A program made the translations under genes and the position numbers. A model generated the notes under the pieces. It worked only from the letters and a program-made list of their open reading frames with translations, was not told the origin of the DNA and ran no database searches. From Brevundimonas sp. (GTDB lineage: Bacteria > Pseudomonadota > Alphaproteobacteria > Caulobacterales > Caulobacteraceae): a DNA stretch of 64,000 nt. Every line of letters begins with the position of its first letter. Position 1 is the first letter of the stretch. This document shows positions 7,940 to 64,000 of this stretch, in pieces. Where the stretch lies: NCBI RefSeq assembly GCF_029945885.1, contig NZ_JAQSDK010000033.1:38822-102821 (forward strand), in the 5' to 3' direction.

Positions 7940-8032
7940 TCCGTCCGCCGCGAGTGGCGGCGTCGTCCGCTCCGCGGCACCCGCGCTTTCCCACTCCGGG
8001 CTCCGATGCCGGGCCTGTATGGTCAATGAGCG

Positions 8033-8057
8033 TGAACCAATCCGCCTGACGCGCGTT
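8033..8057 (+). promoter_or_regulatory. Putative EcfG/SigT promoter
   Basis: TGAAC-N16-CGTT, one mismatch to GGAAC-N16-CGTT, upstream of a receiver-domain gene. Confidence 0.5.
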
Positions 8058-8118
8058 CAGACTGTTCGCTGTCCGACATATCTGTGCGTCGATGCGTTGT
8101 TCGAGTTGGAATCGGCTG

Positions 8119-8574
8119 TTGCCCGCAAAGCCTGACCTCCGGGTCATGATCGTTGAAGACCAGGCCCTGCTGGCCATGGAACTCGAGCTGGTCCTGGCCG
8201 ACTCAGGCTGCGCCGTCGTGGGCTGCGCCATGGACCGGGCCGGGGCTCTGGTCATCGCCGAGCGCGAACGGCCCGATCTGGCGCTGGTGGATGTGAATCT
8301 TCTCGACGGCATGACCGGCCCGCTGGTGGCCGAGACCCTCGTCAAGAAATACGGCGCGGCCGTCGTCTTCCTGACCGCGAATCCTGAACAGATCCCGGAG
8401 GGGTTTGCCGGTGCCCTCGGGGCGATGTCCAAGCCTGTCGATGAGCGGACCGTCAATGATGTCGTGGGCTTCGCCCGCGAATTCATCGACCATCACACCG
8501 TGGGTGAGATCCCGCGCCGGTTCCGGCTCGCGCCGTGGATGACGCGGCTCGAGCCCGGCAAGAGCCCCCACTGA
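8119..8574 (+). CDS. Single-domain response regulator (general-stress-response type)
   Basis: VEDQ acidic pocket, LVDVNL phospho-Asp, FLTAN, SKP; TTG start inferred. Confidence 0.88.
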   Translation: MPAKPDLRVMIVEDQALLAMELELVLADSGCAVVGCAMDRAGALVIAERERPDLALVDVNLLDGMTGPLVAETLVKKYGAAVVFLTANPEQIPEGFAGALGAMSKPVDERTVNDVVGFAREFIDHHTVGEIPRRFRLAPWMTRLEPGKSPH

Positions 8575-8581
8575 TCCGGGG

Positions 8582-10783: not shown

Positions 10784-10874
10784 GGGCCAGGCTCCTGTCG
10801 GTGTCGGCCGACCTTGTGCGCGGTGCCCCCGCGCCGTCAAATGAAGTTCAGCCGCCCTGGCCGCCGGAGTGTCC

Positions 10875-11684
10875 ATGTTCGCGATCCAGATTCCGCCCGA
10901 GCCCTCGCCGGTTCCGGCCCCGGTCATGGCCCCGAGCTGGGACCTGACGCGCGGCCTGATCGACGCCACGGTGCAGCTGGACCAGCCGGACGGCAACGGG
11001 CGGCGCACGGTCGGGACCGGCTTCCTGGTCGAGGCTCCCCGGCCGGACGGCACGCCACGCACCGTGCTGGTCACCGCCGCCCATGTGTTTGAGCGTATGC
11101 CCGGTACCGAGGCGCGGATCGGCTGGCGCACGGCCCTGCCGGACGGGGCCTGGCGGTTCACGCCGGAACCGCTGCGCATCCGAGAGGCCGACCTGACACC
11201 GGACTGGACCCGGCATCCCGATCGCGACATCGCGGTGATGGAGATCGTCGCCCCCGAGACCTTCGCCCGGGCCGCCATCCCGCTGGGCTGGCTGGCCGGA
11301 TCGACGGACTTTGACACCTGGCAGGTCGGGCCGGGTGACGAACTGCTGTCGCTGGGCTTTCCGCGCGGCCTGTCGGCCAACCGGGCCGGGTTTCCGATCC
11401 TCAGGGTCGGGCGGATCGCCTCATGGCCGCTGACGCCGATCGCGGCCTTCCCGACCTTCCTGCTGGACTTCCCGGTCCATGCCGGGGACTCCGGCGGGCC
11501 GGTGTTCTGGACCCCGAGCGCGCGTCGTCTGCCGGACACGCCGATGCCGGACCACCCGTTCATCGCCGGGGTGCTGGTCCAGACCGTCGAGGTCGATGGA
11601 CAGGACCTCGGCATCGGTGTCGTCGCCCACGCCCGCTATGTGCTTGACGCCATCGCCCTGATGGACGCCGCGCCGGGGCCCTGA
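10875..11684 (+). CDS. Trypsin-like serine protease
   Basis: VTAAHV, DIAV and GDSGGPV triad; GGAG RBS before ATG 10875. Confidence 0.85.
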   Translation: MFAIQIPPEPSPVPAPVMAPSWDLTRGLIDATVQLDQPDGNGRRTVGTGFLVEAPRPDGTPRTVLVTAAHVFERMPGTEARIGWRTALPDGAWRFTPEPLRIREADLTPDWTRHPDRDIAVMEIVAPETFARAAIPLGWLAGSTDFDTWQVGPGDELLSLGFPRGLSANRAGFPILRVGRIASWPLTPIAAFPTFLLDFPVHAGDSGGPVFWTPSARRLPDTPMPDHPFIAGVLVQTVEVDGQDLGIGVVAHARYVLDAIALMDAAPGP

Positions 11685-49269: not shown

Positions 49270-50220
49270 TCAGCGGGCGGCGGTGTTCAGCCTGACCAGT
49301 TCGTGTGATCCATAAAAATGGGGCTCCAGCCCCTTCATCCAGAACAGTTTTCCGAGGCCGCGCGCGATCCTGTCCAGGGCCCAGGCCCGGCGGGGACTGC
49401 GTACGATCAGATAGGGGACGGCGGCACAGGTCCACAGCATCATCTGCACGGCTCCGACCAACATCCAGCGCACCACGGCGATCCAGTCGCGTCGGGCCGC
49501 CGCCGTCTGGCTGGGCCCCTGGCCGAAGGCGAAGGCCCGCGACAGGGCATAGGTCAGGGTGGCCCGGTGGGCCGGGGCGATCTCGTCGACATGGGCCCCG
49601 GCGGCCCAGCCGAACCGCCCGCCTCGATCCGCCAGGGCGGCGAACAGGGCGTCATCCTCGCCGCCGGCCTGATCGGCGCCGACATCGAACGGCGCGGGGC
49701 CGGGCAGGGCGGTCCGGCGCACCATCAGGGAATTGCCGCAGCCATGGGGCTGGTCGATCAGCCGGGTGCGGGCCGGGCCGCTCCGGCCGAAAAAGTCCTC
49801 GAGATAGGGTTTGAGCCAGTCGGCGGCGTCGGGAGCCCGGCCCCGGATCGGGCCGAACACCACATCGGCCCCGGTCTCCACCTGGCCCGCCAGCAACTGG
49901 GCCAGCCAGTCGGGGGCCGCGACCTCGTCATCGTCCAGAAAGGCGATCAGCGGCGCATCGGTGGCCTGGAGGCCGACATTCCGCGCCGTGGCCACACCCG
50001 GCACCGGGGCGTGGCAATAGACCAGGGGCCAGGGCGACCGCCCGCGCAGGGACTCGATCGTGGCCGCGGCGGTTCCGGCCGGATCGTTGTCGACCACCAC
50101 GATCTCGCGCAGACGGTCGGCGACCTCGGTCTGAAGGAACAGGGACTCCAGCGCCCGGGCCAGGCCTTCGGGCCGACGCAGGGTGGGAATGATGACGGCG
50201 ACGGGCTCGGGGGGCGTCAT
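49270..50220 (-). CDS. GT2 glycosyltransferase (HfsL-like by inference)
   Basis: VIIPTLRR, VVVDND, FLDDDE, GGED; ATGA overlap with hfsH. Confidence 0.85.
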   Translation of the reverse strand: MTPPEPVAVIIPTLRRPEGLARALESLFLQTEVADRLREIVVVDNDPAGTAAATIESLRGRSPWPLVYCHAPVPGVATARNVGLQATDAPLIAFLDDDEVAAPDWLAQLLAGQVETGADVVFGPIRGRAPDAADWLKPYLEDFFGRSGPARTRLIDQPHGCGNSLMVRRTALPGPAPFDVGADQAGGEDDALFAALADRGGRFGWAAGAHVDEIAPAHRATLTYALSRAFAFGQGPSQTAAARRDWIAVVRWMLVGAVQMMLWTCAAVPYLIVRSPRRAWALDRIARGLGKLFWMKGLEPHFYGSHELVRLNTAAR

Positions 50221-50960
50221 CGGTCCAGCACCTCGCCGACGGTCTTCAGCGCGCATCCGGCGGCCCGGGCATGGGCGGCGAGCCGGTCCAGCGCCCCCGG
50301 CGTACAGCCCCAGGGTGACGGGCTGTCGCTCACATCATGGGTGAAGAGAATTAGCCAGCCCGCTGTTTTAACGGCGCGGTCGATCCACAGGCGTGCCACG
50401 GCCTCGCCGTCATCGCCCTCGATGCCGACCGCCGGCAACTGGTTCAGGTCCGCCCCGTCCCGGACCAGCCCCGCATGGACTCCCCGCAGCGAACCATAGC
50501 GATCCGCCAGTCGGGCCTTGGCCGCCGGCGAGACCTCGCCATAGGGAAAGGCGAAATGCCGGGCGCTGCCGCCGAGCGCGGTCAGGGCTGCGGTATTGCG
50601 GTCGCTGTCGGCCAGAAGCGCTGCGCCGTCGGTGCGGTGGGCGTCGACATGGCCATGGCTGTGGCAGGCGATCTCGTGCCCCCGCGCGGCCAGGTCGGCG
50701 GTCTCGGTCGCATCGATATAGCGACCCATATGGCCGGTCTCGCCGAACAGGCCGGCACACAGATAATAGGTGCCCCGGGCCTGATGGCGTTCGAGGATGG
50801 CGGCCGCTACGGCCGCGCTGGCCGGGGCATCGTCGAAGGTGAAGCTGACGGTCGGTCCGGTAAGGTCCAGCCGCGCGGGACGCCGGTGCACCAGTCGCGC
50901 ATAGCGGCGGCGCAGCTTGGCCCGGAGTCCGGCGTCGGCGCTGTAGGGCTGGGGCATCAT
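50217..50960 (-). CDS. hfsH: Holdfast polysaccharide deacetylase (CE4/NodB)
   Basis: TFDDAP, HSHGH, FAFPYG, LFTHDV motifs. Confidence 0.9.
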   Translation of the reverse strand: MMPQPYSADAGLRAKLRRRYARLVHRRPARLDLTGPTVSFTFDDAPASAAVAAAILERHQARGTYYLCAGLFGETGHMGRYIDATETADLAARGHEIACHSHGHVDAHRTDGAALLADSDRNTAALTALGGSARHFAFPYGEVSPAAKARLADRYGSLRGVHAGLVRDGADLNQLPAVGIEGDDGEAVARLWIDRAVKTAGWLILFTHDVSDSPSPWGCTPGALDRLAAHARAAGCALKTVGEVLDR

Positions 50961-51898
50961 GCGATCGCCCCGGCATAGAGGGCCGCCCGGTACAGGCGCA
51001 GCGAAAAGGCCCGCGTCGGGACCGGCAGCCACTCGGTCTCGGCCGCCCGCCGCAGCAGGGGTCGCAGCTGGTCGATTCCGGGCAGACGCTTTAGCAACCG
51101 GGCGGCGCGATAGCTGGGATAGGTGCTGACGATGGCCGGATGGCGATCGACGACCCGGGCGAAATTGGGGGCCGACTGTTCGTATTTCCCGGCCAGGGCC
51201 GCGACGGTGTCCAGCCCCATATGGGTGGCCGGATTGTCGACGTGCAGGACCCGGAACCGGCCCGACACCCGCATCGCCCATTCCACATCCTCCCAGCCCC
51301 AGCCGCTGAAGCCGGGATCGAAACTCTCGGCCGCGAACACGTCGCGCCGCACCAGCAGGTTGGAGGTGTAGACATATTTCTCGGGCTGACGGGCGCGCAC
51401 CGTATAGGCCACGCACTCCGACTTGGTGGCCATCGCCCGGTGCACGGCAAAGCGCGGCTCGACCGGGGCCTGCAGCAGGGAGATGCCGCCAAACGCCACC
51501 GGCGGATCCTCGCGCGCCACCAGATCGGCCCAGTCGCGCAGGAAGCGCCGGTAGTCGGGCCGCATGTCACTGTCCAGGAACAGCAGGCTGCCGCCCCGGG
51601 CCGCCGTCGCCAGCCGGTTGCGCCCGATCGAGCGGCCCTCGTTGCGGGGCAGGGTGATCAGCCGCGCCGGCAGGGTCATGGCCTTGATTACCGCCGTCAG
51701 CCGTTTGGTCAGCTCCGGATCGCGGGTGCCGTCATCCAGCACGACGATCTCGACCGAGCCGTCGACGGCCCCGGCCTCCTCATCCAGCAGTTTCAGCAGG
51801 ACTGAGGGATCATCGCCGAGAAAGGGAATCAGCACCGAGACGACCGGGCTGGCGACCTTCCACGTCGGATTGGCAAAGACGCGGCCTTTGGCGGTCAT
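50957..51898 (-). CDS. hfsG: Holdfast GT2 glycosyltransferase
   Basis: VSVLIPF, LDDGT, FLDSDM, GWGWED; lies between flippase and deacetylase. Confidence 0.88.
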   Translation of the reverse strand: MTAKGRVFANPTWKVASPVVSVLIPFLGDDPSVLLKLLDEEAGAVDGSVEIVVLDDGTRDPELTKRLTAVIKAMTLPARLITLPRNEGRSIGRNRLATAARGGSLLFLDSDMRPDYRRFLRDWADLVAREDPPVAFGGISLLQAPVEPRFAVHRAMATKSECVAYTVRARQPEKYVYTSNLLVRRDVFAAESFDPGFSGWGWEDVEWAMRVSGRFRVLHVDNPATHMGLDTVAALAGKYEQSAPNFARVVDRHPAIVSTYPSYRAARLLKRLPGIDQLRPLLRRAAETEWLPVPTRAFSLRLYRAALYAGAIA

Positions 51899-53346
51899 GA
51901 CAGGGCTCTCCGGGTTCGGGCCGTGGCGAGGAGTCGCCCGGCCACATCGCGGACGCCTGCCGCATTCAGGGTCAGGGCGACGACCGCATAGACCAGCGCC
52001 CCGACCGTCGCCTGCAGCATCAGCTCGACCAGCCCGCCGAGGCGGGGCAGGACCGAGACCGCCAGGGCCATGGCCGCCGTGGCCAGACCGCAGCGCGCCA
52101 GGGTCTCCCACGGCACCGGCATGACCAGCACCCGGCGACCGATGGCGATCGAGGCGATCAGCCCGAGTCCGAAACTGATCGCGGTGGACCAGGCCGCGCC
52201 CATCACACCATGACCGGGGATCAGCAGCAGGTTCAGCACGATATTGGCCAGGGCCGGCACCGCCATCGCGGCCAGCAACAGGCCGGTGCGCCGGCCCAGG
52301 GTGAAGGCCTGGTGGAAATAGTAGGTGGTCAGGCCCGACAGCAGGGCCGACAGGGCGATCCACGGCGTGATCGATGCCGCGACCCGGCGCAGGTCCTCGC
52401 CGATCATCACCTCGGTCAGTGGCCCGGCCACCAGGGCGACCCCGGCGGCGGCGGGCAGGCCGATCAGCAGGAAGGTCGAGGCCTGTTCGCGGGCCGCCGT
52501 CTGCAGGCGTTCGCCGCCGCCGCGCTCCAGCGCCATCACCAGGGCCGGGGTCCCCGCCGCCCCCAGCCAGATGAACAGCACGTCCAGCGTCCGGTTCGCG
52601 AGGCTGTAGCCCGCGTGATAGGCCCCGACCGCCGCCTCGTTCATGAAGGCCGCCAGCAGGAATCGGTCGGTCGAGGACAGAACGACCGCCAGGGCCAGCG
52701 AGGCGGCGATCGGATAGCCATAGACGGCATAGGTCCGCAGTCGGGTGCGGTCGACGCGTGCCCCGCGCCCCTGTTTCAGCTCGCCCGGCAGGATGAAGGG
52801 CAGGGTCAGCAGCGGGGCCAGCATCAGCCCGATCAGCGGCGCGGAGCCTCCGGCCCCGGCCAGGGCCACGGCCACCCCGATGGCCAGGCCGCCGATGGCG
52901 GTGATCATGTCGATGCGCGCGGCCCGGCCGACCTCACCGGCGGCGCGGAACCGCTCCATGGCCAGTTTGGCGAAACAGCGCACGGGAATGCCGCCGACCC
53001 CGACGGCCACGGCGATGCGGAAGGCCATATCCATCGGCCACAGGGCGATCAGGACCGCCGCGACCGGCAGGAAGACCAGGCCGAGCCGGAAGGCCGTCCG
53101 GTACAGGCTGGCGAAATGACGGGCCAGGCCCTCGGCGGTCTGTTCGGCGGCCCAGAACCGGGCCATGGCCGCCTCCAGCCAGCTGAACACCGCCACATGG
53201 GCCAGGGTCATGACCGAAAAGGCCAGGGCATAGCGGCCGAAATCCGCCGGGCTCAGCACCCGGGTGAAGATGACGATGGCCAGGAAGCCGACCACCCCCT
53301 GGACGATATTGGCCGGCAGATAGCCCCAGACCCCGCGCCAGAACAT
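51895..53346 (-). CDS. hfsF: Polysaccharide flippase (Wzx)
   Basis: About 12 TM helices; DFGRYAL, TDRFLL, VGAYHAG. Confidence 0.88.
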   Translation of the reverse strand: MFWRGVWGYLPANIVQGVVGFLAIVIFTRVLSPADFGRYALAFSVMTLAHVAVFSWLEAAMARFWAAEQTAEGLARHFASLYRTAFRLGLVFLPVAAVLIALWPMDMAFRIAVAVGVGGIPVRCFAKLAMERFRAAGEVGRAARIDMITAIGGLAIGVAVALAGAGGSAPLIGLMLAPLLTLPFILPGELKQGRGARVDRTRLRTYAVYGYPIAASLALAVVLSSTDRFLLAAFMNEAAVGAYHAGYSLANRTLDVLFIWLGAAGTPALVMALERGGGERLQTAAREQASTFLLIGLPAAAGVALVAGPLTEVMIGEDLRRVAASITPWIALSALLSGLTTYYFHQAFTLGRRTGLLLAAMAVPALANIVLNLLLIPGHGVMGAAWSTAISFGLGLIASIAIGRRVLVMPVPWETLARCGLATAAMALAVSVLPRLGGLVELMLQATVGALVYAVVALTLNAAGVRDVAGRLLATARTRRALS

Positions 53347-53359
53347 CAGTGTGCTCCGC

Positions 53360-54961
53360 TCAACGAATGGCCTGCCGGTCGCCCAGCAGAACGGGGATGG
53401 TGACCAGCATCACCCACAGGTCCAGCCACAGCGACTGGCGTTCGATATAGTCGATGTCCAGCTGCACGCGGCGGCGCACGTCCTGGGCCGAATGCAGCGG
53501 TCCGCGCGAGCCGTGGATGGCGGCCCAGCCGGTCATGCCCGGCTTGATGCGGTGACGATGGGCGTATTCCGCCACCAGTCGCGCCGATTCGATATGGCCG
53601 GTCTTCATGCCGATCGCATGGGGGCGGGGCCCGACCAGCGACATCTCGCCCTTCAGCACATTCAGCAGCTGCGGCAGTTCGTCGAGACTGGTGGACCGCA
53701 GGATGCGGCCGATCCGCGTGACCCGGTCGTCATCGGCCGTGACCTGGCGCGACGCGGTGGCGTCGGCGGTCTCGGGCCGCATCGAGCGGAATTTCCACAC
53801 CACGATCTCTTCCTGGTTGAAGCCGTGGCGGCGCTGGCGGAACAGGATCGGGCCCGGGCTGTCGAGCCGGATGGCCAGGGCGACCAGCGCCATCACCGGG
53901 GCCAGCAGCACCGTGGCCGTCAGGCCGACGATCAGGTCCTGCAGTCGCTTGTGAAAAGCGCGGCGCTCGTCGTCGACCGGCCCGTCCAGCTGGGCCAGCG
54001 AGGTCCGGGCCAGCCGGTCGACCGCCTTGCCCCAGTCGGCATCGGCCGGTTCGACCAGCAGGGTCACCTCATTGGGCAGGGTCCGCAGCCGGGTGGTCAG
54101 ATCGCGCACCCGCGCCTCGGCCTTGGGATCGATGGCCAGCACGATCCGGTCGACATAGGGGGTCATGTGATGGGTCAGCAGGTCGTCGGCCCGGCCCAGC
54201 ACCGGCACGCCGGCGATGGCGCGCGGCGACCGGGCCAGCCGGTCGTCGAAAATGCCCAGCACATTGAGGTCACGCCGCGTCAGGGCCTCGCGGATCAGGC
54301 CTTCGGCGTGGCGGGTGGCCCCGACCAGGACGATGCTGGGCGTCAGGGCCCCCGAGGCGCGCCAACGGCCGACCAGATCGCTCCAGCCGATATGCAGGCC
54401 GTTCAGACTGATCAGGATCAGGCCGGTCCAGACCAGATAGGCTGACCAGGGGGCGGCGGCCCCGCGCATCAGGGCCCCGACGCCGATCGTGGCGGCGGCC
54501 CCGGCCAGGGTGATTGCGGCCACCGCGGCCAGGTGCAGGCCGACGCGATGACTGCGGGTGAACCGGTACAGGCCCAGCGACCGCATCATGGCCAGCACGG
54601 CCATGCCGCCGGCCACGAAGGGCAGGACCTGCCACAGCCGGGCCTCGGCCAGGGATCCGGGCACGGCGGCCCAGGCACACAGCAGGCTGACCGCGATCAC
54701 CGCCAGCACGTCGAAGGCGCGGAAATAGTGGACCGCCAGCCGGGCCGTGTGCCGCTGGCGGGCATTCAGCCAGACCCCGGGCCGGAACGGGCCGCGCCGG
54801 GCAGCCCCGTCGGCGTCGATGCCGGCATCGCCGTCCCCGTCACCGTCGGGGGTCAGGGCGGCTCCGGCCAGGGCCTGGAGACCGGCCGCGTCCAGCGTCG
54901 CCGGCTCGCCGGACGGCGAGGACGATCGGGCCGGCGAACGGCTGCGGACGGCTTGGGTCAT
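53360..54961 (-). CDS. hfsE: Priming undecaprenyl-phosphate sugar transferase
   Basis: KFRSM, DDDRVTRIG, SLDELPQL, VGPRPH, KPGMTGWA motifs. Confidence 0.92.
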   Translation of the reverse strand: MTQAVRSRSPARSSSPSGEPATLDAAGLQALAGAALTPDGDGDGDAGIDADGAARRGPFRPGVWLNARQRHTARLAVHYFRAFDVLAVIAVSLLCAWAAVPGSLAEARLWQVLPFVAGGMAVLAMMRSLGLYRFTRSHRVGLHLAAVAAITLAGAAATIGVGALMRGAAAPWSAYLVWTGLILISLNGLHIGWSDLVGRWRASGALTPSIVLVGATRHAEGLIREALTRRDLNVLGIFDDRLARSPRAIAGVPVLGRADDLLTHHMTPYVDRIVLAIDPKAEARVRDLTTRLRTLPNEVTLLVEPADADWGKAVDRLARTSLAQLDGPVDDERRAFHKRLQDLIVGLTATVLLAPVMALVALAIRLDSPGPILFRQRRHGFNQEEIVVWKFRSMRPETADATASRQVTADDDRVTRIGRILRSTSLDELPQLLNVLKGEMSLVGPRPHAIGMKTGHIESARLVAEYAHRHRIKPGMTGWAAIHGSRGPLHSAQDVRRRVQLDIDYIERQSLWLDLWVMLVTIPVLLGDRQAIR

Positions 54962-55049
54962 GGAACTCCTGCAATCGGGTAGCGGTGATCATGCACAGCG
55001 CCCCTCACTGTCCCGTTAACGGTGCCGCTGTTGCCCGCACCAAACCCGG

Positions 55050-55078
55050 TTGCGCCGCGCCCCGCCCTCGGCTATCTG
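55050..55078 (+). promoter_or_regulatory. Sigma70-type promoter of tRNA-Ser
   Basis: TTGCGC-N17-TATCTG. Confidence 0.65.
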
Positions 55079-55089
55079 CCGTGCCTGCT

Positions 55090-55181
55090 GGAGACGTGGC
55101 CGAGTGGCTTAAGGCAACGGTTTGCTAAATCGTCGTACCCTGTAAGGGGTACCCAGGGTTCGAATCCCTGCGTCTCCGCCA
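55090..55181 (+). tRNA. tRNA-Ser(GCT)
   Basis: 92-nt class II cloverleaf GGAGACG...TTGCTAA...long variable arm...GGTTCGAATCC...CTCCGCCA. Confidence 0.97.
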
Positions 55182-55406
55182 GAACCCTATAAAAAGGGGT
55201 TTCATAACAACATCTTGCTTGTTGCGGGTGGTAACCTCCCTAAATATGACCCTAAAGATGGGTCGGCTGGTAGTCGTAGCGACCCACCGCTCGATACGCG
55301 CCTGCGTCGCACCCGACTGGCCTCGCACTGGACATCGATCTCGTCACGCTTCGCCCGGTGGGGCGGTCAAACGATAACTTGTCTCCACCGAAGCGGGGCG
55401 CTGCTG

Positions 55407-56765
55407 TCAGACTGCCGCGCTGTGGCGCTTCGGGGCGGTGATGGAGCGGTTGTCGAAACAGGCGGCGACGACCCGGACGAGCCGACCCATGGCGTGCGGT
55501 ATGCGGAGACGGCGGCCATCGATCCGGCACAGGCCGTCGGCCTGCAGGGCCCGGGCGGCCTTGATGGCCGGGTCGAGCGCCGAGACTTCGCGGCCGTGGT
55601 CCAGGCATACGGCCCCCACATCGACCTGGAGATCGCACATCAGTCGCTCGATCACGGCCCGGCGCAGGCGGTCGTCTGACGTCGTTTCCAGCTGGCGGCC
55701 GACAGGCAGCTGCCCTGCCGCGATGTCGGCCGTCCAGTCGTCGACCCGCAGTCTGTTCTGGGCATAGGCATAGGGCAGGCTGCTGATCGCCGACGGGCCC
55801 AGCCCGATCAGCACCGCGGACGGATCGTCCGTATAGCCCTGGAAGTTCCGATGCAGGCTGCCCTCGGCCAGGCGGGCGGCCATGGAGTCACCCGGGCGGG
55901 CATAGTGGTCCATGCCGATACGGACATAGCCGTGCGCCGCCAGCACCGCCTCGGCGGCCTCGGCCTGGGTCCAGCGACCCGATCCATCGGCCAGGTCCGC
56001 GTCGCGGATGACCGCCTGGTGCTTCTTCATCCACGGCACATGGGCATAGCCGAACAGGGCGACCCGATCGGGTTCCAGCGTGAGTGCGGTCTCCATGCTG
56101 GCCGTGACATTCTCCGGGGTCTGGCCCGGCAGGCCGTACATCATGTCGAAATTGATCGCATCGATCCCGCCGCCGCGCAGGGCCTGGACGGCCGTGGCGA
56201 CCTGTTCAGAGGGCTGTATCCGGTTGACCAGGCGCTGGACCTCCAGATCGAAGGTCTGCACGCCCAGGCTGGCCCGGGTCACCCCTGCCGCGCCCAGACC
56301 CCGGGCGAAGTCGCCGTCCAGGGTGCCGGGATCCAGTTCCACGGCGACCTCGGCACCGGGACGCAGGCGGAAGCGTCCGGCGAGGAGGGCCAGCAGTCCG
56401 GTGAAGTCGTCGGTGTTGAGGCTGTTCGGACTGCCGCCGCCGAAATGCAGATGAGCCGTGCCGGCATGGGCGGGCAGGGCGTCGCCCCACAGGTCGATCT
56501 CGCGTTTCAGCTGGTCGAGGAACCGGGCGACCCGCGCATAGCCATTGGGCACGCTGGTATGGCAGCCGCAGTACCAGCACAGCCGCTCACAGAACGGGAT
56601 GTGGACATAGATCGACAGGGTGTCGTGCGACTGGATATCGCCCAGCCAGCGGCGGAGGTCCGCGTCATCCGTTGCCGGCTGGAATGCCAGGGCCGTGGGA
56701 TAGCTGGTGTAGCGTGGCAGGGCGCGGGTCGCGTGGCCCAGCAGACGGTCGGACAGGGGAGTCAT
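55407..56765 (-). CDS. hemN: Oxygen-independent coproporphyrinogen III oxidase
   Basis: PRYTSYPT, CERLCWYCGC radical SAM motif, RNFQGYT. Confidence 0.95.
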   Translation of the reverse strand: MTPLSDRLLGHATRALPRYTSYPTALAFQPATDDADLRRWLGDIQSHDTLSIYVHIPFCERLCWYCGCHTSVPNGYARVARFLDQLKREIDLWGDALPAHAGTAHLHFGGGSPNSLNTDDFTGLLALLAGRFRLRPGAEVAVELDPGTLDGDFARGLGAAGVTRASLGVQTFDLEVQRLVNRIQPSEQVATAVQALRGGGIDAINFDMMYGLPGQTPENVTASMETALTLEPDRVALFGYAHVPWMKKHQAVIRDADLADGSGRWTQAEAAEAVLAAHGYVRIGMDHYARPGDSMAARLAEGSLHRNFQGYTDDPSAVLIGLGPSAISSLPYAYAQNRLRVDDWTADIAAGQLPVGRQLETTSDDRLRRAVIERLMCDLQVDVGAVCLDHGREVSALDPAIKAARALQADGLCRIDGRRLRIPHAMGRLVRVVAACFDNRSITAPKRHSAAV

Positions 56766-57343
56766 AGCGTCATCGCCTCCGCATGAGCGAGGTCATCAGG
56801 CGTGTTGATGTTGAGGAAGGGATCCCGCGGGTCGATCGGCCAGTCGACGATGACGCGGCCGGCCGCCTCGCTTAGACCGTTCAGGGACAGCCGTCCGTTC
56901 CCGGCGCGCTGGACGAGAACGGGCAGGGTGGTGGTGCGCCACAGGGCACATATCGGATGCAGTCGCCCGCCGCTGGCGGCGACGGCGACCGCGACGTCAT
57001 CCTTCAGGGCCTGATCGAGCCGGGCCAGAAGGTCAGGGGGCAGGAATGGCATGTCGCACGGGATAGTGAGCACGCGATCGGTGCCGTTGAGGTCAGCCCA
57101 TGCCAGAGCCGAGGCCAGACCGCCAAGGGGGCCGGGAATGTCGGGGTCGTCAAGGATCACCGGCGCCAGCACATTGCTGACCTGTGTCGGGTTGCGCAGG
57201 ACCAGGACCACCGGGGCAGCCCATCCGTGGGCTGCTTTCAGCGAATGGGTCAAAAGGCGGCTCCCGGCGAGGGGCCTGTCCGGCTTGGCCCCGCCGATCC
57301 GCTGCCCGTCCCCGCCGGCCAAAACTGCCGTGACGATACTCAT
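56762..57343 (-). CDS. mobA: Molybdenum cofactor guanylyltransferase
   Basis: LAGGDGQRIGG, GPLGGL, PCDMPFL, FLNINTPDDL. Confidence 0.93.
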   Translation of the reverse strand: MSIVTAVLAGGDGQRIGGAKPDRPLAGSRLLTHSLKAAHGWAAPVVLVLRNPTQVSNVLAPVILDDPDIPGPLGGLASALAWADLNGTDRVLTIPCDMPFLPPDLLARLDQALKDDVAVAVAASGGRLHPICALWRTTTLPVLVQRAGNGRLSLNGLSEAAGRVIVDWPIDPRDPFLNINTPDDLAHAEAMTL

Positions 57344-58011
57344 GATGGCCGACCCTTGCCCGCGGCTCGCGACCGCGATCGCGGTTTGGGGCAGACAGGC
57401 TCAAGACGGCTGACGTCGTCGGGACCCGTGACCGTGGTCTCCATGTCCCGGACCAGACCGTCGCGAATGGAGTAGATCCAGCCATGGATCGACAGGGGCT
57501 GACCCCGTTTCCAGGCGTCGGTGATAAAGGGGTTGCGGGACAGGGCGCGGACCTGGGCCAGCACGTTCTTCTCGCAGATGAAATTGATCCGCGCCTCATG
57601 ATCCTGGATGGCCGCGAGTTCGTCGTCATGGTCCTCGCACAGCCGTTGAACGCGCTGCATCCAGTGGTCGAGGATCCCGTGGCGCTGCCCGTCGAGCACG
57701 GCCCGGACGCCGCCACAGCCATAGTGGCCGCAGACGATGATGTGGCGAACCTTCAGCGACTCGAGGGCGAACTGCAGGACGGCCAGCAGGTTCATGTCCT
57801 GGGCGGGGGCCAGGTTGGCGACGTTGCGATGGACGAACAGTTCGCCGGGTTCCAGACCGACGATCTCATTGGCGGGAACGCGACTGTCCGAACAGCCGAT
57901 CCAGAGATATTCGGGCGACTGCTGCGCCGATAGCCTTCGGAAAAACTCCGGATCGATCCGGGCCTTGGCCGATGCCCATTTGAGATTGTTTCGAAGGAGG
58001 TCCTCGATCAC
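57340..58011 (-). CDS. can: Beta-carbonic anhydrase
   Basis: CSDSRV, HRNVAN, HYGCGG motifs. Confidence 0.95.
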   Translation of the reverse strand: MIEDLLRNNLKWASAKARIDPEFFRRLSAQQSPEYLWIGCSDSRVPANEIVGLEPGELFVHRNVANLAPAQDMNLLAVLQFALESLKVRHIIVCGHYGCGGVRAVLDGQRHGILDHWMQRVQRLCEDHDDELAAIQDHEARINFICEKNVLAQVRALSRNPFITDAWKRGQPLSIHGWIYSIRDGLVRDMETTVTGPDDVSRLEPVCPKPRSRSRAAGKGRPS

Positions 58012-58598
58012 GGCGTCGCTCCCGCCGATCCGGGGCCATCCGGTGGGAACGCAGGATCAGGGCTGTCCAGGAATACCCCCCGTCGGGCCGCCATCCGGGT
58101 GCTGAGGGCGTGCAGGTCCCGGGGTGTCAGGCGCAGGCGCGCGATCGGCAGGATGACCGCATTTTCCAGCGCGATATGGCGACGCTCGTGCAGGGCGAAA
58201 TCCGTGAACAGGCGGCGCGTTTCCAGATCATGACCCGGTGGTTGCCCCGCGATCAGCGCCCGTTCCAGCAGGGTGCCCAGGGTCCGGGTCTGCTCCATGT
58301 CGTCGCGATGCTCGGCCGACAGCGCGCCCAGCAGGGGGCCGAGTTCATCTTCCGGCAGGCAGCGACGGCGCAGCAGGGGGAACAGGTCCTCTTCCTCGTC
58401 GATGACGTGAAGGGCCATGTCGTGGCGCAGGAAGGTCAGAATTTCCTCCGCCTCCTCGCGCAGCAGCACGGTCGCGGTGCCGACGCGCTCGATCAGGCGG
58501 CACAGCTGACGGTGGCGATAGTGTTCAGCGAACAGCCAGTTCAGCGGTTCGTGAGCAAGGCCCGCGGGCAGGGGCTCGATCTGAGGTGTCTGGCTCAT
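58008..58598 (-). CDS. Hemerythrin-domain protein
   Basis: EH...HVIDEEEDLFP...EH...HERRHIALEN di-iron pattern. Confidence 0.88.
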   Translation of the reverse strand: MSQTPQIEPLPAGLAHEPLNWLFAEHYRHRQLCRLIERVGTATVLLREEAEEILTFLRHDMALHVIDEEEDLFPLLRRRCLPEDELGPLLGALSAEHRDDMEQTRTLGTLLERALIAGQPPGHDLETRRLFTDFALHERRHIALENAVILPIARLRLTPRDLHALSTRMAARRGVFLDSPDPAFPPDGPGSAGATP

Positions 58599-58629
58599 CC
58601 GGAATGACCTTGTTGCCCCGCCATGACAT

Positions 58630-59856
58630 CTAGAACCGGTATTCCGCAGCGACCCAGACCTTGGTGCGATCGGGGAAGGCGACCTGGGCACCGTCGAAGC
58701 GGGCGGCCTTGATCTCGATGGCCCGACGCGGGTCCAGAACCAGCCGGCCCGACAGGTCGAGCTCCTGGCCGTATCGGCTCGATCCGTCGGCGTCGCGAAT
58801 ATCGTGCCAGGAGGCGGTCAGCGTGGCGCTGGTTCCGACGGGCGGGTGGGCGATGGCATGGCTGACCGTGGCGGACACATCGCGCAGCCCGTCCCCGGGC
58901 GTATTCAGGAACACATCCGCCCAGCCCTGGAAGGCGTGCAGGGTCGCCAGCGGGGTCTGGAAGGCCCGGGTTCCGTTGCCGTCCATCCGCTCTACGGCCA
59001 GGGTGCCTGTCAGAGACCCGCGCTTCAGGCCCGCGGAGACCAGTCCGTAGTCCAGGTCGAAGCTGGCGGGATTGCTGCCGTAGTCAGACTGGCGCGCATA
59101 GTCGACGGCATACAGGGCCGACCAGTCGGCAGACAGGGCGTGGCTGCCCTCCAGTCGCGCGCCCCAGGTCGCCGAGGATTGGGCCGGAGCATTGGAGAAA
59201 TCGAGCAGATAGCCATAGGCCGTCAGCTTTCCGACCGGAGTCGGGGCCTCGACATTGATCAGGTGACTGTCGGAATTCCATTCCCCGACGGGGCTGTCGT
59301 TCCCGAAGATCCGGTGGACCCGATCGATCCAGACATAGGTCACCGTCATCGGCTTCAGGGTGCGGGTCGTCACCTTGACGGCGTCGAACGTCTGCTCGTT
59401 CTGACGGAAGCCGACATTGCCGACGAAGCGGGCGTTGCCGAGAATGATGCGCTGGCGGCCCAGGACGACCTCGGTGTCCGGGAGGCCGGTCCAGGTCAGC
59501 TGCAGGCGGTTCAGTTCAATCCCTTCCGGGTCGGCCACCACCGGATAACTGGCCGGACCGTGGATGGTGTCATTGTAGTCGTCGACCAGGGCCACGACCC
59601 CCTCACCCTCGACCAGCAGTTTGAACCCTGACCAGTCCGGGCTCTGCCAGCCAAGGCGCGCGCGGAGTGTTACGGCCGTGGCATCGTCAAGCCCGTCCTG
59701 ACTGACCCCCTCGTAGCGCAGGCGGCTGTCGAACAGGATGTCGCCCGCTTGCGTCGAGGCGACTGCGGGGCCGGTGGCCGGGGTCTGGGCATGGGCCATG
59801 GCGGGGGCTGCCGCCAGGGCCAGGGCCAGCAGGGCGGGGCGGGAAAGGGTCTTCAT
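58630..59856 (-). CDS. Outer-membrane beta-barrel (alginate-export/AlgE-like family)
   Basis: Signal peptide; GRQRI, RFVGNVGFRQNEQTFDA; C-terminal EYRF beta-signal. Confidence 0.8.
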   Translation of the reverse strand: MKTLSRPALLALALAAAPAMAHAQTPATGPAVASTQAGDILFDSRLRYEGVSQDGLDDATAVTLRARLGWQSPDWSGFKLLVEGEGVVALVDDYNDTIHGPASYPVVADPEGIELNRLQLTWTGLPDTEVVLGRQRIILGNARFVGNVGFRQNEQTFDAVKVTTRTLKPMTVTYVWIDRVHRIFGNDSPVGEWNSDSHLINVEAPTPVGKLTAYGYLLDFSNAPAQSSATWGARLEGSHALSADWSALYAVDYARQSDYGSNPASFDLDYGLVSAGLKRGSLTGTLAVERMDGNGTRAFQTPLATLHAFQGWADVFLNTPGDGLRDVSATVSHAIAHPPVGTSATLTASWHDIRDADGSSRYGQELDLSGRLVLDPRRAIEIKAARFDGAQVAFPDRTKVWVAAEYRF

Positions 59857-59857
59857 C

Positions 59858-60970
59858 TCAATTTCTCCGGATGAGGGTGAAGGTCTTCACCGGCACCGTC
59901 AGTTTTGATTTCAGGATCGCCCGCACGCAGGCCAGCGCCGGATCACCGGAGCCCTGGGCAGCCGAGATCAGTCGGGTCCAGCTTTCGTCGCCGGCACCCT
60001 GGGCAAAGTTGGAAATCTCTCGCTGAACAAAGGTCGCGAATCCGATCCCGGCCGCTTCAGCGACTTCACGGGCCCGGGTGGCCAGGGCCGGATCGGCCTC
60101 GTCCAGCCAGGTCTCGAGTCGGGCCGCGACGGCCGCCTGGTCGTTCAGGAGGTCCCCGAGGGACAGGGCCCCGTTGGACACGGTGCCGTCGATGGTGACG
60201 CTGAGCGCCACGCCGCGTTCCCGGGCTTCGGCCGCAAGTCCGGACACATAGCGGGTCGCCGCTGCGGTCCAGGCGCGGCTTTCCAGATGGAGGGAGATCT
60301 GGGGCTGGACGTGTTCGAACGGCAGCCGTTGGCCATCGATCCGCCGGTCGAGGCGCAGGATGTGCCAGCCGAAGCGGGACTGGACCGGTTCGGTCGCTGT
60401 CTCGCCGGCCAGGAGCCTGTCCAGTCCGGCCTCGACCTCGGGGGCGAGATCCCCGGGCGAGAGTTGGCCGAGAGAGCCTCCGACTCCCTTGGACGGGCAG
60501 TCCGAGAGTGAGGCCGCCAGGGCCGCGAACCGCGACGGATGTTCAGCCAGTTCGGCAATGGCCGCCAGCGCGATCTCCCGGGCATCGGCCCAGGCGGCGT
60601 CGTCGGCACCCTTGGGCGCGCACAGGATGTGGGAGGCCTGGGTCAGCCGGGGTGTCCGGAACCTGTCCGGCGCGCCGTCATAGACCCGGCGACATTCGCT
60701 TTCGTCGGGGCGCTCGACCGTGATCTCGGCGTCGAGAACGGCGCGGACGAGGGCTTCTTCCGGCGTCTCTTCCCGACCGTCATCGTCCAGCTCTGCCTCG
60801 GCCTGCAGACCCAGTTGATGCGCCCGATCCAGCAGCAGGGCCTTGATGGCCAGGGCATGAGCGGCCGCGTTCCGGGCCGCCTCAGCCGTGGCGGCCGGGT
60901 GGTTCTGGGCCTCCTCGGCGACGAGACGCTCGGGGAGTTCCACCCCGTCGACAACGATGACGGCGTTCAT
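59858..60970 (-). CDS. PpiC-type peptidyl-prolyl isomerase (NarM/NifM-like) with extra C-terminal domain
   Basis: ASHIL, SDCPSKGVGGSLG, SRFGWHI; ATGA overlap with narI. Confidence 0.88.
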   Translation of the reverse strand: MNAVIVVDGVELPERLVAEEAQNHPAATAEAARNAAAHALAIKALLLDRAHQLGLQAEAELDDDGREETPEEALVRAVLDAEITVERPDESECRRVYDGAPDRFRTPRLTQASHILCAPKGADDAAWADAREIALAAIAELAEHPSRFAALAASLSDCPSKGVGGSLGQLSPGDLAPEVEAGLDRLLAGETATEPVQSRFGWHILRLDRRIDGQRLPFEHVQPQISLHLESRAWTAAATRYVSGLAAEARERGVALSVTIDGTVSNGALSLGDLLNDQAAVAARLETWLDEADPALATRAREVAEAAGIGFATFVQREISNFAQGAGDESWTRLISAAQGSGDPALACVRAILKSKLTVPVKTFTLIRRN

Positions 60971-61686
60971 TTGATGCGCTCCGCGGTACGGCGGGTCACC
61001 GGCATCGGGCGCTTGCTGCGCACCAGCTGCCAGCCCCGGCGGTTGAGGTACCAGACCGGTGCCGACAACATGTGGACCAGCCGGGTGAACGGGAAGACCA
61101 GCAGGATAGTCAGGCCGAGGGTGATGTGGGTCTTGAACACCCAACTGACGTCGGCAACGAAGCCGGCGCTGTAGGGGTTGAAGGTGAAAATGCCTTGGGC
61201 CCAGCTCATGAATTTGATCATTTCAGAGCCGTCCCGGTGTCCCAGCGACAGCGGTATGGTCGCCAGTCCCAGGCACAGCTGCACCATCAGGATCACCAGG
61301 ATGGCGATGTCGCCGAAGCTGGAGGTGTTGCGGATTCGCGGATCAAACAATCTCCGGTGCAGCAGCAGCAGGCCTCCGGCCAGGCAGAAGACCCCGGCGA
61401 CACCGCCCGCGACGATGGCCAGCATCTGTTTGAAACTGTGGGTGACCCCGAGGAAGTCCCATACGGCGACCGGCGTCAGCAGGCCGACGAAATGGCCGCC
61501 GAAGATAGCCAGGATGCCGAGGTGAAACAGCACCGAGCCGAGCATCAATTGCTTGCGCCGAAGCAGCTGGGACGATCCGGTGCGCCAGGTGTATTGCTCA
61601 CGGTCGAACCGCAATACCGATCCGATCGCCAGCACAGCCATGGCGACATAGGGGTAAACCCCGAACGCGATGAAATTCAGGTCCAT
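60967..61686 (-). CDS. narI: Respiratory nitrate reductase gamma subunit
   Basis: YPY, WRTGSSQLL, LFHLG, PFTRLVH motifs. Confidence 0.97.
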   Translation of the reverse strand: MDLNFIAFGVYPYVAMAVLAIGSVLRFDREQYTWRTGSSQLLRRKQLMLGSVLFHLGILAIFGGHFVGLLTPVAVWDFLGVTHSFKQMLAIVAGGVAGVFCLAGGLLLLHRRLFDPRIRNTSSFGDIAILVILMVQLCLGLATIPLSLGHRDGSEMIKFMSWAQGIFTFNPYSAGFVADVSWVFKTHITLGLTILLVFPFTRLVHMLSAPVWYLNRRGWQLVRSKRPMPVTRRTAERIK

Positions 61687-61697
61687 GACGGAAATCC

Positions 61698-62414
61698 TCA
61701 GGCAGCCGCGCCGGAACGGCGGCTCTTTTCTGGCGGTGGGGCGGCGTTCATCGCGGACAGGATGGAATCGGCCTTCGGACAGCCGACCTCTCCAGGTCCG
61801 AAGCTGACGGCCGTTTCTTCCCAGGACTTGTCGAGCGCCTCGAGGTCGTCTGGGTCCTCGTCCGGCTCCTGCATCAGGGCCGCTACGGCGTCGGTGTCGG
61901 GCACCGCATCGGCCAGATTCGACAAGGCTCCGAAGACGGCGCGATAGGGACTATCCCGCTTGTGCAGCCGCTCGGTCAGGGCGGCCAGCACGTGGGCCCC
62001 TTCACCAAGCAGGGAGGCCGCTTCAGCGTCCGGCAGGGTGGACAGGAAGTCCAGGAAGACCGGTAGGTGATCCGGCAGTTCCTTGGCCGACAGCTCGAGC
62101 CCGTAGGAGGCGTAGAGCTCGACCAGGGCGGCCATGGCCTGACCCCGGTCGCGGCTTTCACCGTGGATGTGTTCGTACAGGTTCAGAGACAGCGACCGGG
62201 TGCGGTCGAACAGCTGCACGAACCCCTCCTGCAGATCATAGAGATCGTCGTGTTCCAGCATCCCGGCCAGTTTCTCCAGCGACCGGACGATCGGATCGGG
62301 GACCAGGCCTTCGTTGCGGATGGCGTCGATGGCCTCGGGGGCGGCGGCCTGGATCTCAGCGGTCGGATAGCTGAGCATGAGCGCGAGGGCGCGATAGGTC
62401 AGGGCCATGATCAA
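61698..62414 (-). CDS. narJ: Nitrate reductase chaperone
   Basis: LFDRTRSLSL, GESRDRGQAM, ELPDHLP; start TTG 62414 or ATG 62408. Confidence 0.96.
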   Translation of the reverse strand: MIMALTYRALALMLSYPTAEIQAAAPEAIDAIRNEGLVPDPIVRSLEKLAGMLEHDDLYDLQEGFVQLFDRTRSLSLNLYEHIHGESRDRGQAMAALVELYASYGLELSAKELPDHLPVFLDFLSTLPDAEAASLLGEGAHVLAALTERLHKRDSPYRAVFGALSNLADAVPDTDAVAALMQEPDEDPDDLEALDKSWEETAVSFGPGEVGCPKADSILSAMNAAPPPEKSRRSGAAA

Positions 62415-63934
62415 GCCACCTCTGCTGTGGGTTTGGCGCGTGAGCGCTTGTCAGGCCCGAACAGGCCCAGCTCGGTGCGGCCGCCGGAGCAGCCGTTGCC
62501 GAAGGTGAAGCCGCAGCCGCCCCGGATGTCGAAGGAGTCCTCGGCGGTCTCTCGGTGGGTCGAGGGGATGACGAAGCGGTCCTCGTAATCGGCGATGGCC
62601 ATGATCTTGAACATGTCGTCGATCTGCGCCGCGGTCAGACCGACCTTGGCCGCGAGGGTGTGGTCGATACGACCGTCGATGGTCTTGGCCCGCATGTAGG
62701 CCCGCATGGCCAGCATCCGCTGAAGCGCCAGCGTCACCGGGGCCTCGACGCCCGCCGTCAACAGGTTGGCGAGGTATTTGACCGGGATGCGCAGCTTGTT
62801 CACGTCCGGCATTTCGCCGTCCATCTCAAGCGCCCCGACGGCCGCCGCGTTCTGGATCGGCGACAGCGGCGGCACGTACCAGACCATCGGCAGGGTCCGG
62901 TATTCGGGGTGGAGCGGGAAGGCGATCTTCCAGTCCATGGCCATCTTGTAGACCGGGCTGCGTTTGGCCCCCTCGATCCAGGCATCGGGCACGCCGTCAG
63001 CCCTGGCCTGGGCGATCACCGCCGGATCGTGCGGATCGAGGAAGACGTCGAGTTGGGCCTGGTAGAGGTCTTTCTCGTCGACGCTCGCGGCCTCGCTGAT
63101 GCGATCGGCGTCATAGAGCAGCACCCCCAGATAGCGGATGCGTCCGACGCAGGTTTCGGAACAGACGGTCGGCTGGCCGACCTCGATGCGCGGGAAGCAG
63201 AAGGTGCATTTCTCGGATTTGCCCGAGTCCCAGTTGTAGTAGATTTTCTTGTAGGGGCAGGCCGAGACGCACATGCGCCAGCCACGGCATTTGTCCTGGT
63301 CGATCAGGACGATACCGTCTTCTTCCCGTTTGTAGATCGCGCCTGAGGGACAGGCCGCGACGCAGGTCGGATTCAGGCAGTGCTCACACAGCCTGGGCAG
63401 GTACATCATGAAGGTGTTTTCGAACTCGCCGTACATCTCCTTTTCGATGTCGGCGAAATTGTAGTCCTTGGACCGCTTTGCGAACTCGCCGCCAAGGATT
63501 TCCTCCCAGTTTGGACCCCATTCGATCTTCTCCATCCGCTGGCCGGTGATGGCCGAGCGCGGACGAGCGGTGGGGAAATGCTTCATCTCCGGCGCGGTCT
63601 GGAGATGAGCGTAGTCGAAGTCGAACGGCTCGTAATAGTCGTCGATCTCGGGCAGGTCCGGGTTGGCGAAAATCTTGGCCAGGATGCGCCATTTCGGGCC
63701 CATCCGCGGCTCGATGTCGCCGTTCTTCTTGCGCCGCCAGCCGCCGTTCCAGCGTTTCTGGTTTTCCCAGTCCTTGGGATAGCCGATGCCGGGCTTGGTC
63801 TCGACGTTGTTGAACCAGGCGTATTCAACGCCCTTTCGGCTGGTCCAGACGTTCTTGCAGGTGACGGAGCAGGTGTGACAGCCGATACATTTATCGAGGT
63901 TCAGCACCATGCCGATCTGGGCGCGGACCTTCAT
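62411..63934 (-). CDS. narH: Respiratory nitrate reductase beta subunit
   Basis: LDKCIGCHTC, CEHCLNPTC, CRGWRMC, CTFCFP Fe-S motifs. Confidence 0.99.
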   Translation of the reverse strand: MKVRAQIGMVLNLDKCIGCHTCSVTCKNVWTSRKGVEYAWFNNVETKPGIGYPKDWENQKRWNGGWRRKKNGDIEPRMGPKWRILAKIFANPDLPEIDDYYEPFDFDYAHLQTAPEMKHFPTARPRSAITGQRMEKIEWGPNWEEILGGEFAKRSKDYNFADIEKEMYGEFENTFMMYLPRLCEHCLNPTCVAACPSGAIYKREEDGIVLIDQDKCRGWRMCVSACPYKKIYYNWDSGKSEKCTFCFPRIEVGQPTVCSETCVGRIRYLGVLLYDADRISEAASVDEKDLYQAQLDVFLDPHDPAVIAQARADGVPDAWIEGAKRSPVYKMAMDWKIAFPLHPEYRTLPMVWYVPPLSPIQNAAAVGALEMDGEMPDVNKLRIPVKYLANLLTAGVEAPVTLALQRMLAMRAYMRAKTIDGRIDHTLAAKVGLTAAQIDDMFKIMAIADYEDRFVIPSTHRETAEDSFDIRGGCGFTFGNGCSGGRTELGLFGPDKRSRAKPTAEVA

Positions 63935-63999
63935 TGGGCTGGCTCCTTGGCCTGAGAAAAGTCGCCGAGCGGCTCGTCGAGCCAGTCGACCTTGGTCAT
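63931..63999 (-). CDS. narG: Respiratory nitrate reductase alpha subunit, 3' end only
   Basis: ...MTKVDWLDEPLGDFSQAKEPAQ* with ATGA overlap onto narH. Confidence 0.85.
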   Translation of the reverse strand: MTKVDWLDEPLGDFSQAKEPAQ

Positions 64000-64000
64000 C

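Follow-up and report, generated by a model that had tools for sequence, protein, structure and literature searches.

An outer-membrane beta-barrel encoded in the nar operon of Brevundimonas is a candidate nitrate/nitrite channel

Models of nitrate respiration and nitrate assimilation begin at the inner membrane, with NarK and NrtABC. The locus described in this study raises the question of what an outer-membrane beta-barrel does inside a nar operon. We analyzed a stretch of 64,000 nucleotides from Brevundimonas sp. (contig NZ_JAQSDK010000033.1), referred to as the window, in which the gene at 58630..59856 on the minus strand encodes a barrel protein of 408 aa. It follows narH-narJ-narI-PPIase in the operon, where PPIase denotes a peptidyl-prolyl isomerase. 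An earlier, sequence-only reading took the protein for an AlgE-like barrel and proposed a dedicated channel for an oxyanion, namely nitrate, nitrite or molybdate. Judged on gene context and predicted fold, on which all functional claims below rest, we consider it probable that the barrel is a dedicated outer-membrane channel for nitrate/nitrite.

The open reading frame is a real, conserved gene, as shown by its homologs together with structure prediction by AlphaFold2. The stop codon TGA of the PPIase gene (59860-59858) is followed by a single base, G at 59857, and then by the ATG of the barrel gene at 59856; a GGAG is located about 10 nt upstream of this ATG, within the 3' end of the PPIase gene. 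As read from the sequence, the protein starts with a standard Sec signal peptide of residues 1-23 (59788..59856, minus strand), with the N-terminus MKTLSRPALLALALAAAPAMAHA followed by QTP, a predicted cleavage between AHA and Q, and no lipobox cysteine. The chain closes with VAAEYRF, its last residue being aromatic as is usual for outer-membrane barrels. The best homologs share 90% identity across the full length (E=6e-248), the named ones belonging to Brevundimonas, and an exhaustive HMMER scan assigned 2931 clusters at 50% identity to the family (E<=1e-3). The model, generated by AlphaFold2 from an 83-sequence alignment, has 18 beta-strands according to DSSP. An exported barrel one nucleotide past the PPIase stop, its position inside a nar operon and the absence of alginate genes nearby, all reported by the sequence-only reading, were thus confirmed; the nearest polysaccharide genes are located at 50217-54961, outside the operon.

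The main evidence on the substrate comes from the genes that surround the homologs of the barrel. A scan of one genome per species, covering 185,579 species, recovered at least 600 loci, of which the best 80 were kept, and their neighbours within 10 kb were called by tblastn with the window proteins and by Pfam. Forty-nine of these best 80 loci are situated beside nar, narK, nrtABC/nasT/nirB/nasA or NIT-domain chemoreceptor genes. The narGHJI genes are found within 10 kb in 31 loci, and nrtABC, the ANTAR regulator gene nasT, nirB or nasA in 13; three loci possess a narK-type transporter gene alone, and in two a gene for a chemoreceptor with the nitrate/nitrite-sensing NIT domain is directly adjacent. 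The barrel gene occupies three different slots in nar operons, after the PPIase gene in Caulobacteraceae, between narJ and narI in Hyphomonadaceae, and directly after narI in Parvularculaceae and others, which indicates that the linkage was maintained through rearrangement and not only inherited.

Five loci of the Hyphomonadaceae type (L010, L012, L014, L047 and L057) have the barrel gene at about 10001-11110 between narJ and narI, splitting narGHJI, and their PPIase and hemerythrin genes come after narI. Three further loci with alphaproteobacterial-type nar/narK/fnr/barrel genes share one layout on near-identical barrel contigs (L024 versus L025 and L036, with branch lengths of 0.009 and 0.028). 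They were deposited as 'Alphaproteobacteria bacterium' and 'uncultured Flavobacteriaceae', which is probably due to mis-binning.

The co-occurrence of the barrel with nitrate genes was analyzed in 201 Caulobacterales species genomes. NarH is present in 52 genomes, and the barrel was found in 51 of them, in 47 on the same contig at a distance of 0.7-2.7 kb from narH. Likewise, 14 of the 15 genomes positive for NrtA/NasS possess the barrel, mostly adjacent. With either marker as the criterion, the barrel is present in 63 of 65 positive genomes and in 18 of the 136 genomes with neither marker (p=6e-33, Fisher test without phylogenetic correction). Several of these 18 marker-negative genomes are still nitrate-linked, through nasA-nirB-narK in locus L084 and a NIT-domain protein in L097; in L096 a narHJI cluster is broken by the contig end, and other marker-negative barrel loci are located near fnr or hemN.

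Among the individual loci of this order, L095 (G165:C2:22076-39254) encodes PPIase-barrel-hemerythrin-carbonic anhydrase-mobA at 6159-9850, with hemN near and no narGHJI in the locus. The genome gave no NarH match at E<=1e-120, and the locus may be the remnant of a nar operon of which the accessory half was kept. Tandem duplicate barrels were found at G118:C31:38691-41612, G148:C7:8625-11403 and G163:C74:42122-45045, all three from one genus of the same family, which has larger genomes. The pairs of G118 and G163 adjoin an NrtA-like gene; the contig of G148 has no NrtA match.

Outside Caulobacterales, an evenly drawn sample of the phylum was examined over 8 kb, with control regions taken 200 kb away in the same genomes. 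Genes of the nar, nas or nrt type were found near 20 of 40 barrel loci compared to one of 20 control regions (p=5e-4), and the lone control match is a weak NirB-like one. Public records agree with this distribution. In Pseudoalteromonas donghaensis an 'alginate export family protein' gene is followed by nirB-nirD-cobA, near genes for a nitrate regulatory protein and a formate/nitrite transporter. Blastomonas sp. RAC04 has the order ANTAR-NrtA-nitrate/nitrite transporter (narK)-'porin'-nirBD-nitrate reductase-cobA, Sphingobium has nrtA-nrtB-nrtD-'hypothetical protein', the last being the barrel, and in Sulfuricurvum kujiense (Campylobacterota) the barrel gene diverges from nnrS and precedes nrdD and napAGH.

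A maximum-likelihood tree was constructed from 103 barrels, in which those linked to nar and those linked to nas are intermingled. Its well-supported branches require at least four changes of the nar label and at least seven of the nas label, so the association with nitrate was gained or kept many times. The possibility that homologs would prove unlinked to N-oxide respiration, which the sequence-only reading had named as a refutation, was examined, and repeated linkage to nar, nas/nrt, nap and NIT-domain chemoreceptor genes was found instead. The sole trait common to membrane-bound Nar with NarK, to periplasmic Nap, to assimilatory Nas with NrtABC or NarK, to NirBD with a nitrite transporter, and to NIT chemoreceptors is a need for nitrate or nitrite in the periplasm, which argues for a nitrate/nitrite channel. 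Found beside nitrate genes of four kinds, the barrel probably represents the missing outer-membrane gate for these ions. Substrate-specific porins encoded together with uptake systems, such as OprP and LamB, are an already known kind, and the linkage of OprP with pst or LamB with mal, to the transporter and enzymes of one substrate, was also found for the barrel with nar, nas/nrt and nap.

Several observations weigh against a dedicated nitrate/nitrite channel. Twenty-four of the best 80 loci lack any such nitrate gene within 10 kb, roughly a third to half of the family has no nitrate gene within 8-10 kb, and two deep clades within Caulobacterales are wholly unlinked. The co-occurrence statistics include no correction for phylogeny, nor for the transfer of nar islands en bloc. 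Nitrate is small enough for general porins and does not strictly require a channel of its own. With 33 basic and 46 acidic residues, the mature protein as a whole is net acidic. Moreover, a beta-carbonic anhydrase is a frequent neighbour in Caulobacterales, so that on context alone bicarbonate would be a possible substrate for this sub-clade. The neighbours of the 24 unlinked loci are mixed, including chemoreceptors, hemN and ribonucleotide reductases, and no polysaccharide system was found among them. The key lumen residues are equally conserved in 61 unlinked and 68 nitrate-linked barrels, which suggests that the unlinked copies probably perform the same job from another genomic position. 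Among the carriers are groups whose outer membranes have low permeability and which depend on specific channels, for instance Caulobacterales, Pseudomonas and sphingomonads; this fits the channel reading.

These unlinked copies bear directly on another explanation, that the protein is a general or weakly anion-preferring porin. Anoxia or nitrogen limitation would induce it, and it would make the outer membrane more permeable to small solutes in general while nitrate pathways are active, with no true specificity for nitrate or nitrite. Some members have only fnr, hemN or genes for anaerobic ribonucleotide reductase beside them and no nitrate genes, stand-alone copies have FNR-type boxes upstream, and channels of broad specificity such as MOMP belong to the fold class. 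However, the linkage reaches aerobic nas/nrt operons and NIT chemoreceptors, for which the common feature is nitrate/nitrite and not anoxia, and many lumen residues are invariant across the family, as is typical of specific channels. We therefore regard a general porin as unlikely, and return to the dedicated nitrate/nitrite channel in considering how the protein is built.

The AlphaFold2 model has a mean pLDDT (per-residue confidence) of 93.3 and a pTM (predicted template modelling score) of 0.86. Its N-terminus consists of a helix at residues 6-19 and a disordered part at 19-34, followed by strand 1. Topology of the model and the alignment together show that conservation is strongest in the long extracellular loops L3 and L7. 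Loop L3, residues 136-155 (RIILGNARFVGNVGFRQNEQ, 20 aa; 59392..59451, minus strand), is the most conserved motif of the family, with R143, R151 and Q152 invariant; note that the peptide pattern used for the genome scan overlaps it. Loop L7, residues 292-323 (32 aa; 58888..58983, minus strand), is long and highly conserved, with T301, P302, H307, G311, D314, F316, T319, P320 and G323 near-invariant. L3 is likely a constriction loop and L7 likely a second one. Loop L2 has 18 residues in the model.

Conserved residues cluster in L3, in L7 and at lumen-facing strand positions. The invariant or near-invariant basic residues are R45, R47, R65, R134, R143, R151 and R182, and the acidic ones are E49, E83, D109, D158, E289, D314, D326 and E365. 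Among these, R45, R47, E49, R65 and E83 are predicted to face the lumen from strands 1-3, R134 is at the end of strand 5, and L3 contains R143 and R151. About ten conserved lumen-facing arginines are accompanied by about as many conserved acidic residues.

Sequence comparison places the family only distantly. The sole Pfam match of the window protein is to Alginate_exp (19.0 bits, E=6.8e-4, residues 128-165 only), below the gathering threshold of 25.2 bits for PF13372. The same model matches 77 of 83 relatives at E<=0.01, with the best at 1.8e-13, which identifies the family as a distant branch of PF13372. No relevant family model was found in NCBIfam, a direct sequence search of PDB with the barrel protein gave no match, and a profile search against PDB sequences gave weak matches only, to MOMP and OccAB. 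By predicted structure, the barrel belongs to the fold class of 18-strand specific channels; its Foldseek matches to OprD/Occ channels, MOMP and AlgE have template modelling (TM) scores of 0.6-0.7 when taken together. OprD/Occ channels and the Campylobacter MOMP rank first and AlgE appears from rank 38, so that 'AlgE-like' is no more apt a name than 'OprD-like'.

The likeness to AlgE consists of an 18-strand outer-membrane barrel in both (Foldseek chains 4azl, 4afk and 8q2o, E about 1e-12 to 2e-12, TM 0.6-0.67), of many conserved lumen arginines in both, and of the strand 5-L3-strand 6 motif, which is the part of the barrel that matches the Pfam Alginate_exp model. The window protein is about 80 residues shorter than AlgE. 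AlgE possesses a ten-residue electropositive ring, passes small anions such as iodide, and is gated by the long periplasmic T8 (P-gate) and by L2 (E-gate) (PMC4118822). In contrast to the long T8 gate loop of AlgE (PMC4118822), the periplasmic turn T8 between strands 16 and 17 has four residues in our model (374-377), and the model therefore has no P-gate. The neighbours also differ, being nitrate genes with no recurrent alg genes, and the protein presumably passes a small inorganic anion instead of a polymer. The AlgE likeness noted from the sequence holds for the 18-strand fold, whereas the Pfam match is below the cut-off, the long T8 is lacking, and OprD/Occ and MOMP are equally close.

An AlgE-type exporter of acidic polysaccharide, for example one serving the polysaccharide cluster 3.7 kb downstream, would account for the weak Alginate_exp match and for the polysaccharide genes at 50217-54961. 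The short T8 argues against it. No alg8, alg44, algK or algX-type gene was found in the operon or among the genes that recur around the homologs in sets of 80, 20 and 40 loci, and the neighbour surveys, in which no search was aimed at AlgK, showed no AlgK-like partner. Four nar-accessory genes, a gap and a tRNA gene intervene between the barrel and the cluster, and no polysaccharide or alg gene recurs in about 180 homolog loci. The exporter was rejected on these grounds and retains hardly any probability.

The top-ranked structural matches include the OprD/Occ family of substrate-specific channels. The best Foldseek matches are OccD2, OpdL, OccAB2-4 and OpdQ (OccK6), with E about 7e-15 to 1e-14 and TM 0.61-0.76; these are monomeric 18-strand specific channels, and the long conserved loops of the barrel are likewise L3 and L7. 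OprD/Occ channels are constricted by their L3 and L7 and use a basic ladder to guide anionic substrates. The differences are an identity of only 12-16% in structural alignments, substrates that are carboxylate-bearing organics in Occ channels, and the lack of a match to Pfam OprD (PF03573) in the window protein, with a match in one of 83 relatives (3.5e-6). OpdQ is the closest functional precedent for nitrate, being transcriptionally induced by nitrate via NarXL (PMC4694141). Unlike the barrel gene, the gene for OpdQ is outside nitrate operons, and OpdQ is not known to conduct nitrate.

Three other systems share single features with the proposed nitrate/nitrite channel. OprP and OprO, the anion porins specific for phosphate and polyphosphate, have an arginine-lined path and are co-regulated with the matching inner-membrane uptake system. 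As outer-membrane channels dedicated to small inorganic oxyanions they resemble the proposed role in concept, but they are 16-strand trimers of Pfam Porin_O_P, to which the barrel family has no sequence match. NosA/OprC is an outer-membrane copper channel for nitrous oxide reductase that belongs to denitrification regulons (PMC1274295); it is similarly an outer-membrane component dedicated to an N-oxide respiration pathway, whereas it is a TonB-dependent 22-strand receptor and carries a metal cofactor, not the respiratory substrate. MOMP (PorA of Campylobacter jejuni) has 18 strands, is among the top three Foldseek matches and gave the best yet weak PDB profile match (E=2.7e-4 over the N-terminal 130 residues of the barrel). 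It differs as a general trimeric major porin without a link to nitrate genes.

The third oxyanion named by the sequence-only reading was molybdate, and a channel supplying it for the molybdenum cofactor of Nar and Nas was considered. The operon encodes mobA, moaA and modABC are located about 13 kb from the barrel in the same genome, an FNR-type box overlaps the modA start, and Nar, Nas and Nap are all molybdoenzymes. However, the barrel is directly coupled to systems that do not handle molybdate, namely nrtABC or narK transporters and NIT sensors. A survey of 100 homolog loci found neither modA nor modB at up to 10 kb from the barrel, and the molybdate channel was rejected; its probability is very small. 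Of the proposed oxyanion channel, the nitrate/nitrite part is supported by the repeated gene linkage and the molybdate part is abandoned.

Another small solute related to Nar, such as bicarbonate/CO2, formate or nitric oxide, was considered as well. The carbonic anhydrase gene is two genes downstream of the barrel, hemerythrin and carbonic anhydrase genes follow in many Caulobacterales loci, and NnrS adjoins the barrel in a few loci. The NrtA family, moreover, includes the bicarbonate-binding CmpA. Outside Caulobacterales, by contrast, most loci are without carbonic anhydrase whereas nitrate genes recur, and the adjacent ABC transport systems are accompanied by nasA, nirBD and nasT, which marks them as nitrate systems. 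A channel for such a solute is accordingly improbable, and nitrate/nitrite is retained as the preferred substrate.

Regulatory sequences give additional information. Boxes of the FNR/Dnr type (TTGA-N6-TCAA) were found within 350 nt upstream of the barrel gene in 21 of 139 loci, compared to an expectation of 0.019 per 360 nt (binomial 3e-13), and the boxed loci include several without nitrate genes nearby. No such box is present in the entire 64-kb window. Past the end of the window, the same contig encodes narG, narK2, narK1 and then a divergent Crp/Fnr regulator. There, just beyond the window, locus L102 (G000:C33:102000-120000) has two boxes, at 7324-7337 and 7438-7451, between narK1 and the divergent fnr-like gene, and a third at 9499-9512 on the modA start, with 0.07 boxes expected by chance. 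With boxes upstream of narK1 and none in the window, the barrel gene is probably an internal gene of one FNR-dependent operon. A terminator and promoter scan of 55000-64000 found nothing above chance between narH and hemN.

From these data a tentative mechanism can be drawn. Transcription would probably start from the FNR-box promoter upstream of narK1 and cover the whole operon from narK1 to hemN, so that the barrel, with no promoter-like FNR box of its own and putatively coupled in translation to the PPIase gene, would be made together with nitrate reductase. The channel would let nitrate into the periplasm and most likely pass nitrite too. NarK1 and NarK2 would take the periplasmic nitrate across the inner membrane, and nitrite returned to the periplasm could exit by the same channel. 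The long conserved loops L3 and L7 may fold into the barrel and form the constriction, and the lumen-facing R45, R47, R65, R134, R143, R151 and R182, set against conserved acidic and amide residues, may constitute the anion path. Such an arginine path would be comparable to the basic ladder in OprD/Occ channels or to the ring of arginines in AlgE. A search of this genome for nirK found none; nirS gave no match either, but the control genomes were silent too and its absence is not established. Nitrite may be the end product of nitrate reduction in this organism and would then have to exit the cell.

We lean, by a little more than even chance, towards a wider proposal, in which the family as a whole, with the window protein as its founding example, consists of dedicated nitrate/nitrite channels, present in about 12% of the Pseudomonadota sample and about 40% of Caulobacterales, that were recruited repeatedly into nar/nap, nas/nrt and NIT-chemoreceptor modules and set the whole-cell nitrate affinity where outer membranes have low permeability. 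Public annotation names these genes 'alginate export family protein', 'porin' or 'hypothetical protein'. The sequence-only reading knew of no characterised example, and our literature search, which left most subscription journals uncovered, likewise found no published characterisation and no paper on a nitrate porin or on the alginate-export family together with nitrate genes. The words porin and outer membrane are absent from a 2021 review of the control of nitrate respiration, and a comparative reconstruction of N-oxide regulons from 2005 lists no porin (PMC1274295). If the proposal is true, it would add a missing pathway step, at the outer membrane, that is absent from current nitrogen-cycle models, and would help to explain differences between taxa in whole-cell nitrate affinity and nitrite release. 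It would also provide a better name for thousands of genes and a simple genetic target for studying outer-membrane limits on denitrification at low nitrate.

The full gene order is narK1-narK2-narGHJI-ppi-barrel-hemerythrin-CA-mobA-hemN, where CA is carbonic anhydrase, and the genes of this block in the window are all on the minus strand. Upstream of the barrel are narH (62411..63934, by translation; NarH of relatives is 72-99% identical), narJ (61698..62414, Pfam Nitrate_red_del 1.7e-18), narI (60967..61686, Nitrate_red_gam 5e-77) and the gene of a PpiC-type, NifM-like PPIase without signal peptide (59858..60973; Rotamase 8.7e-18, and TIGR02933 NifM at 4e-16, below cut-off). Downstream are the genes for a DnrN/RIC-like hemerythrin-domain protein (58008..58598; Hemerythrin 4.8e-12 and a weak FeS_repair_RIC match), a beta-class carbonic anhydrase (57340..58011, Pro_CA 6e-53), the molybdenum cofactor guanylyltransferase MobA (56762..57343, NTP_transf_3 7.8e-30) and, as the last gene of the operon, the oxygen-independent coproporphyrinogen oxidase HemN (55407..56765, Radical_SAM and HemN_C). 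Overlaps of 4 nt are found at narH/narJ, hemerythrin/carbonic anhydrase, carbonic anhydrase/mobA and mobA/hemN, and the intergenic gaps of the nar run range from 1 to 31 nt, the largest being that from the barrel stop to the hemerythrin gene. Beyond the Crp/Fnr regulator on the same contig are moaA, modABC, nnrS, a U32 peptidase gene and a class II ribonucleotide reductase gene.

The PPIase has 371 aa, with the rotamase domain restricted to about residues 89-223; its N-terminal part is NifM-like and its C-terminal 140 residues or so have no family match. Many nar operons of Caulobacterales likewise have the hemerythrin and beta-carbonic anhydrase pair downstream of the barrel.

At the hemN end of the block, a tRNA-Ser(GCT) gene (55090..55181, plus strand, ARAGORN) separates it from the polysaccharide genes at 50217-54961, which encode a sugar transferase (Bac_transf), a Wzx-type flippase and a polysaccharide deacetylase. 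These genes are on the far side of the tRNA gene, are not in the nar operon and are unrelated to the barrel. In a sample of the same genus, NarH was found in 6 of 21 genomes and the barrel in 8 of 21. Together with the tRNA gene, this distribution makes the nar-barrel block look accessory and possibly island-borne.

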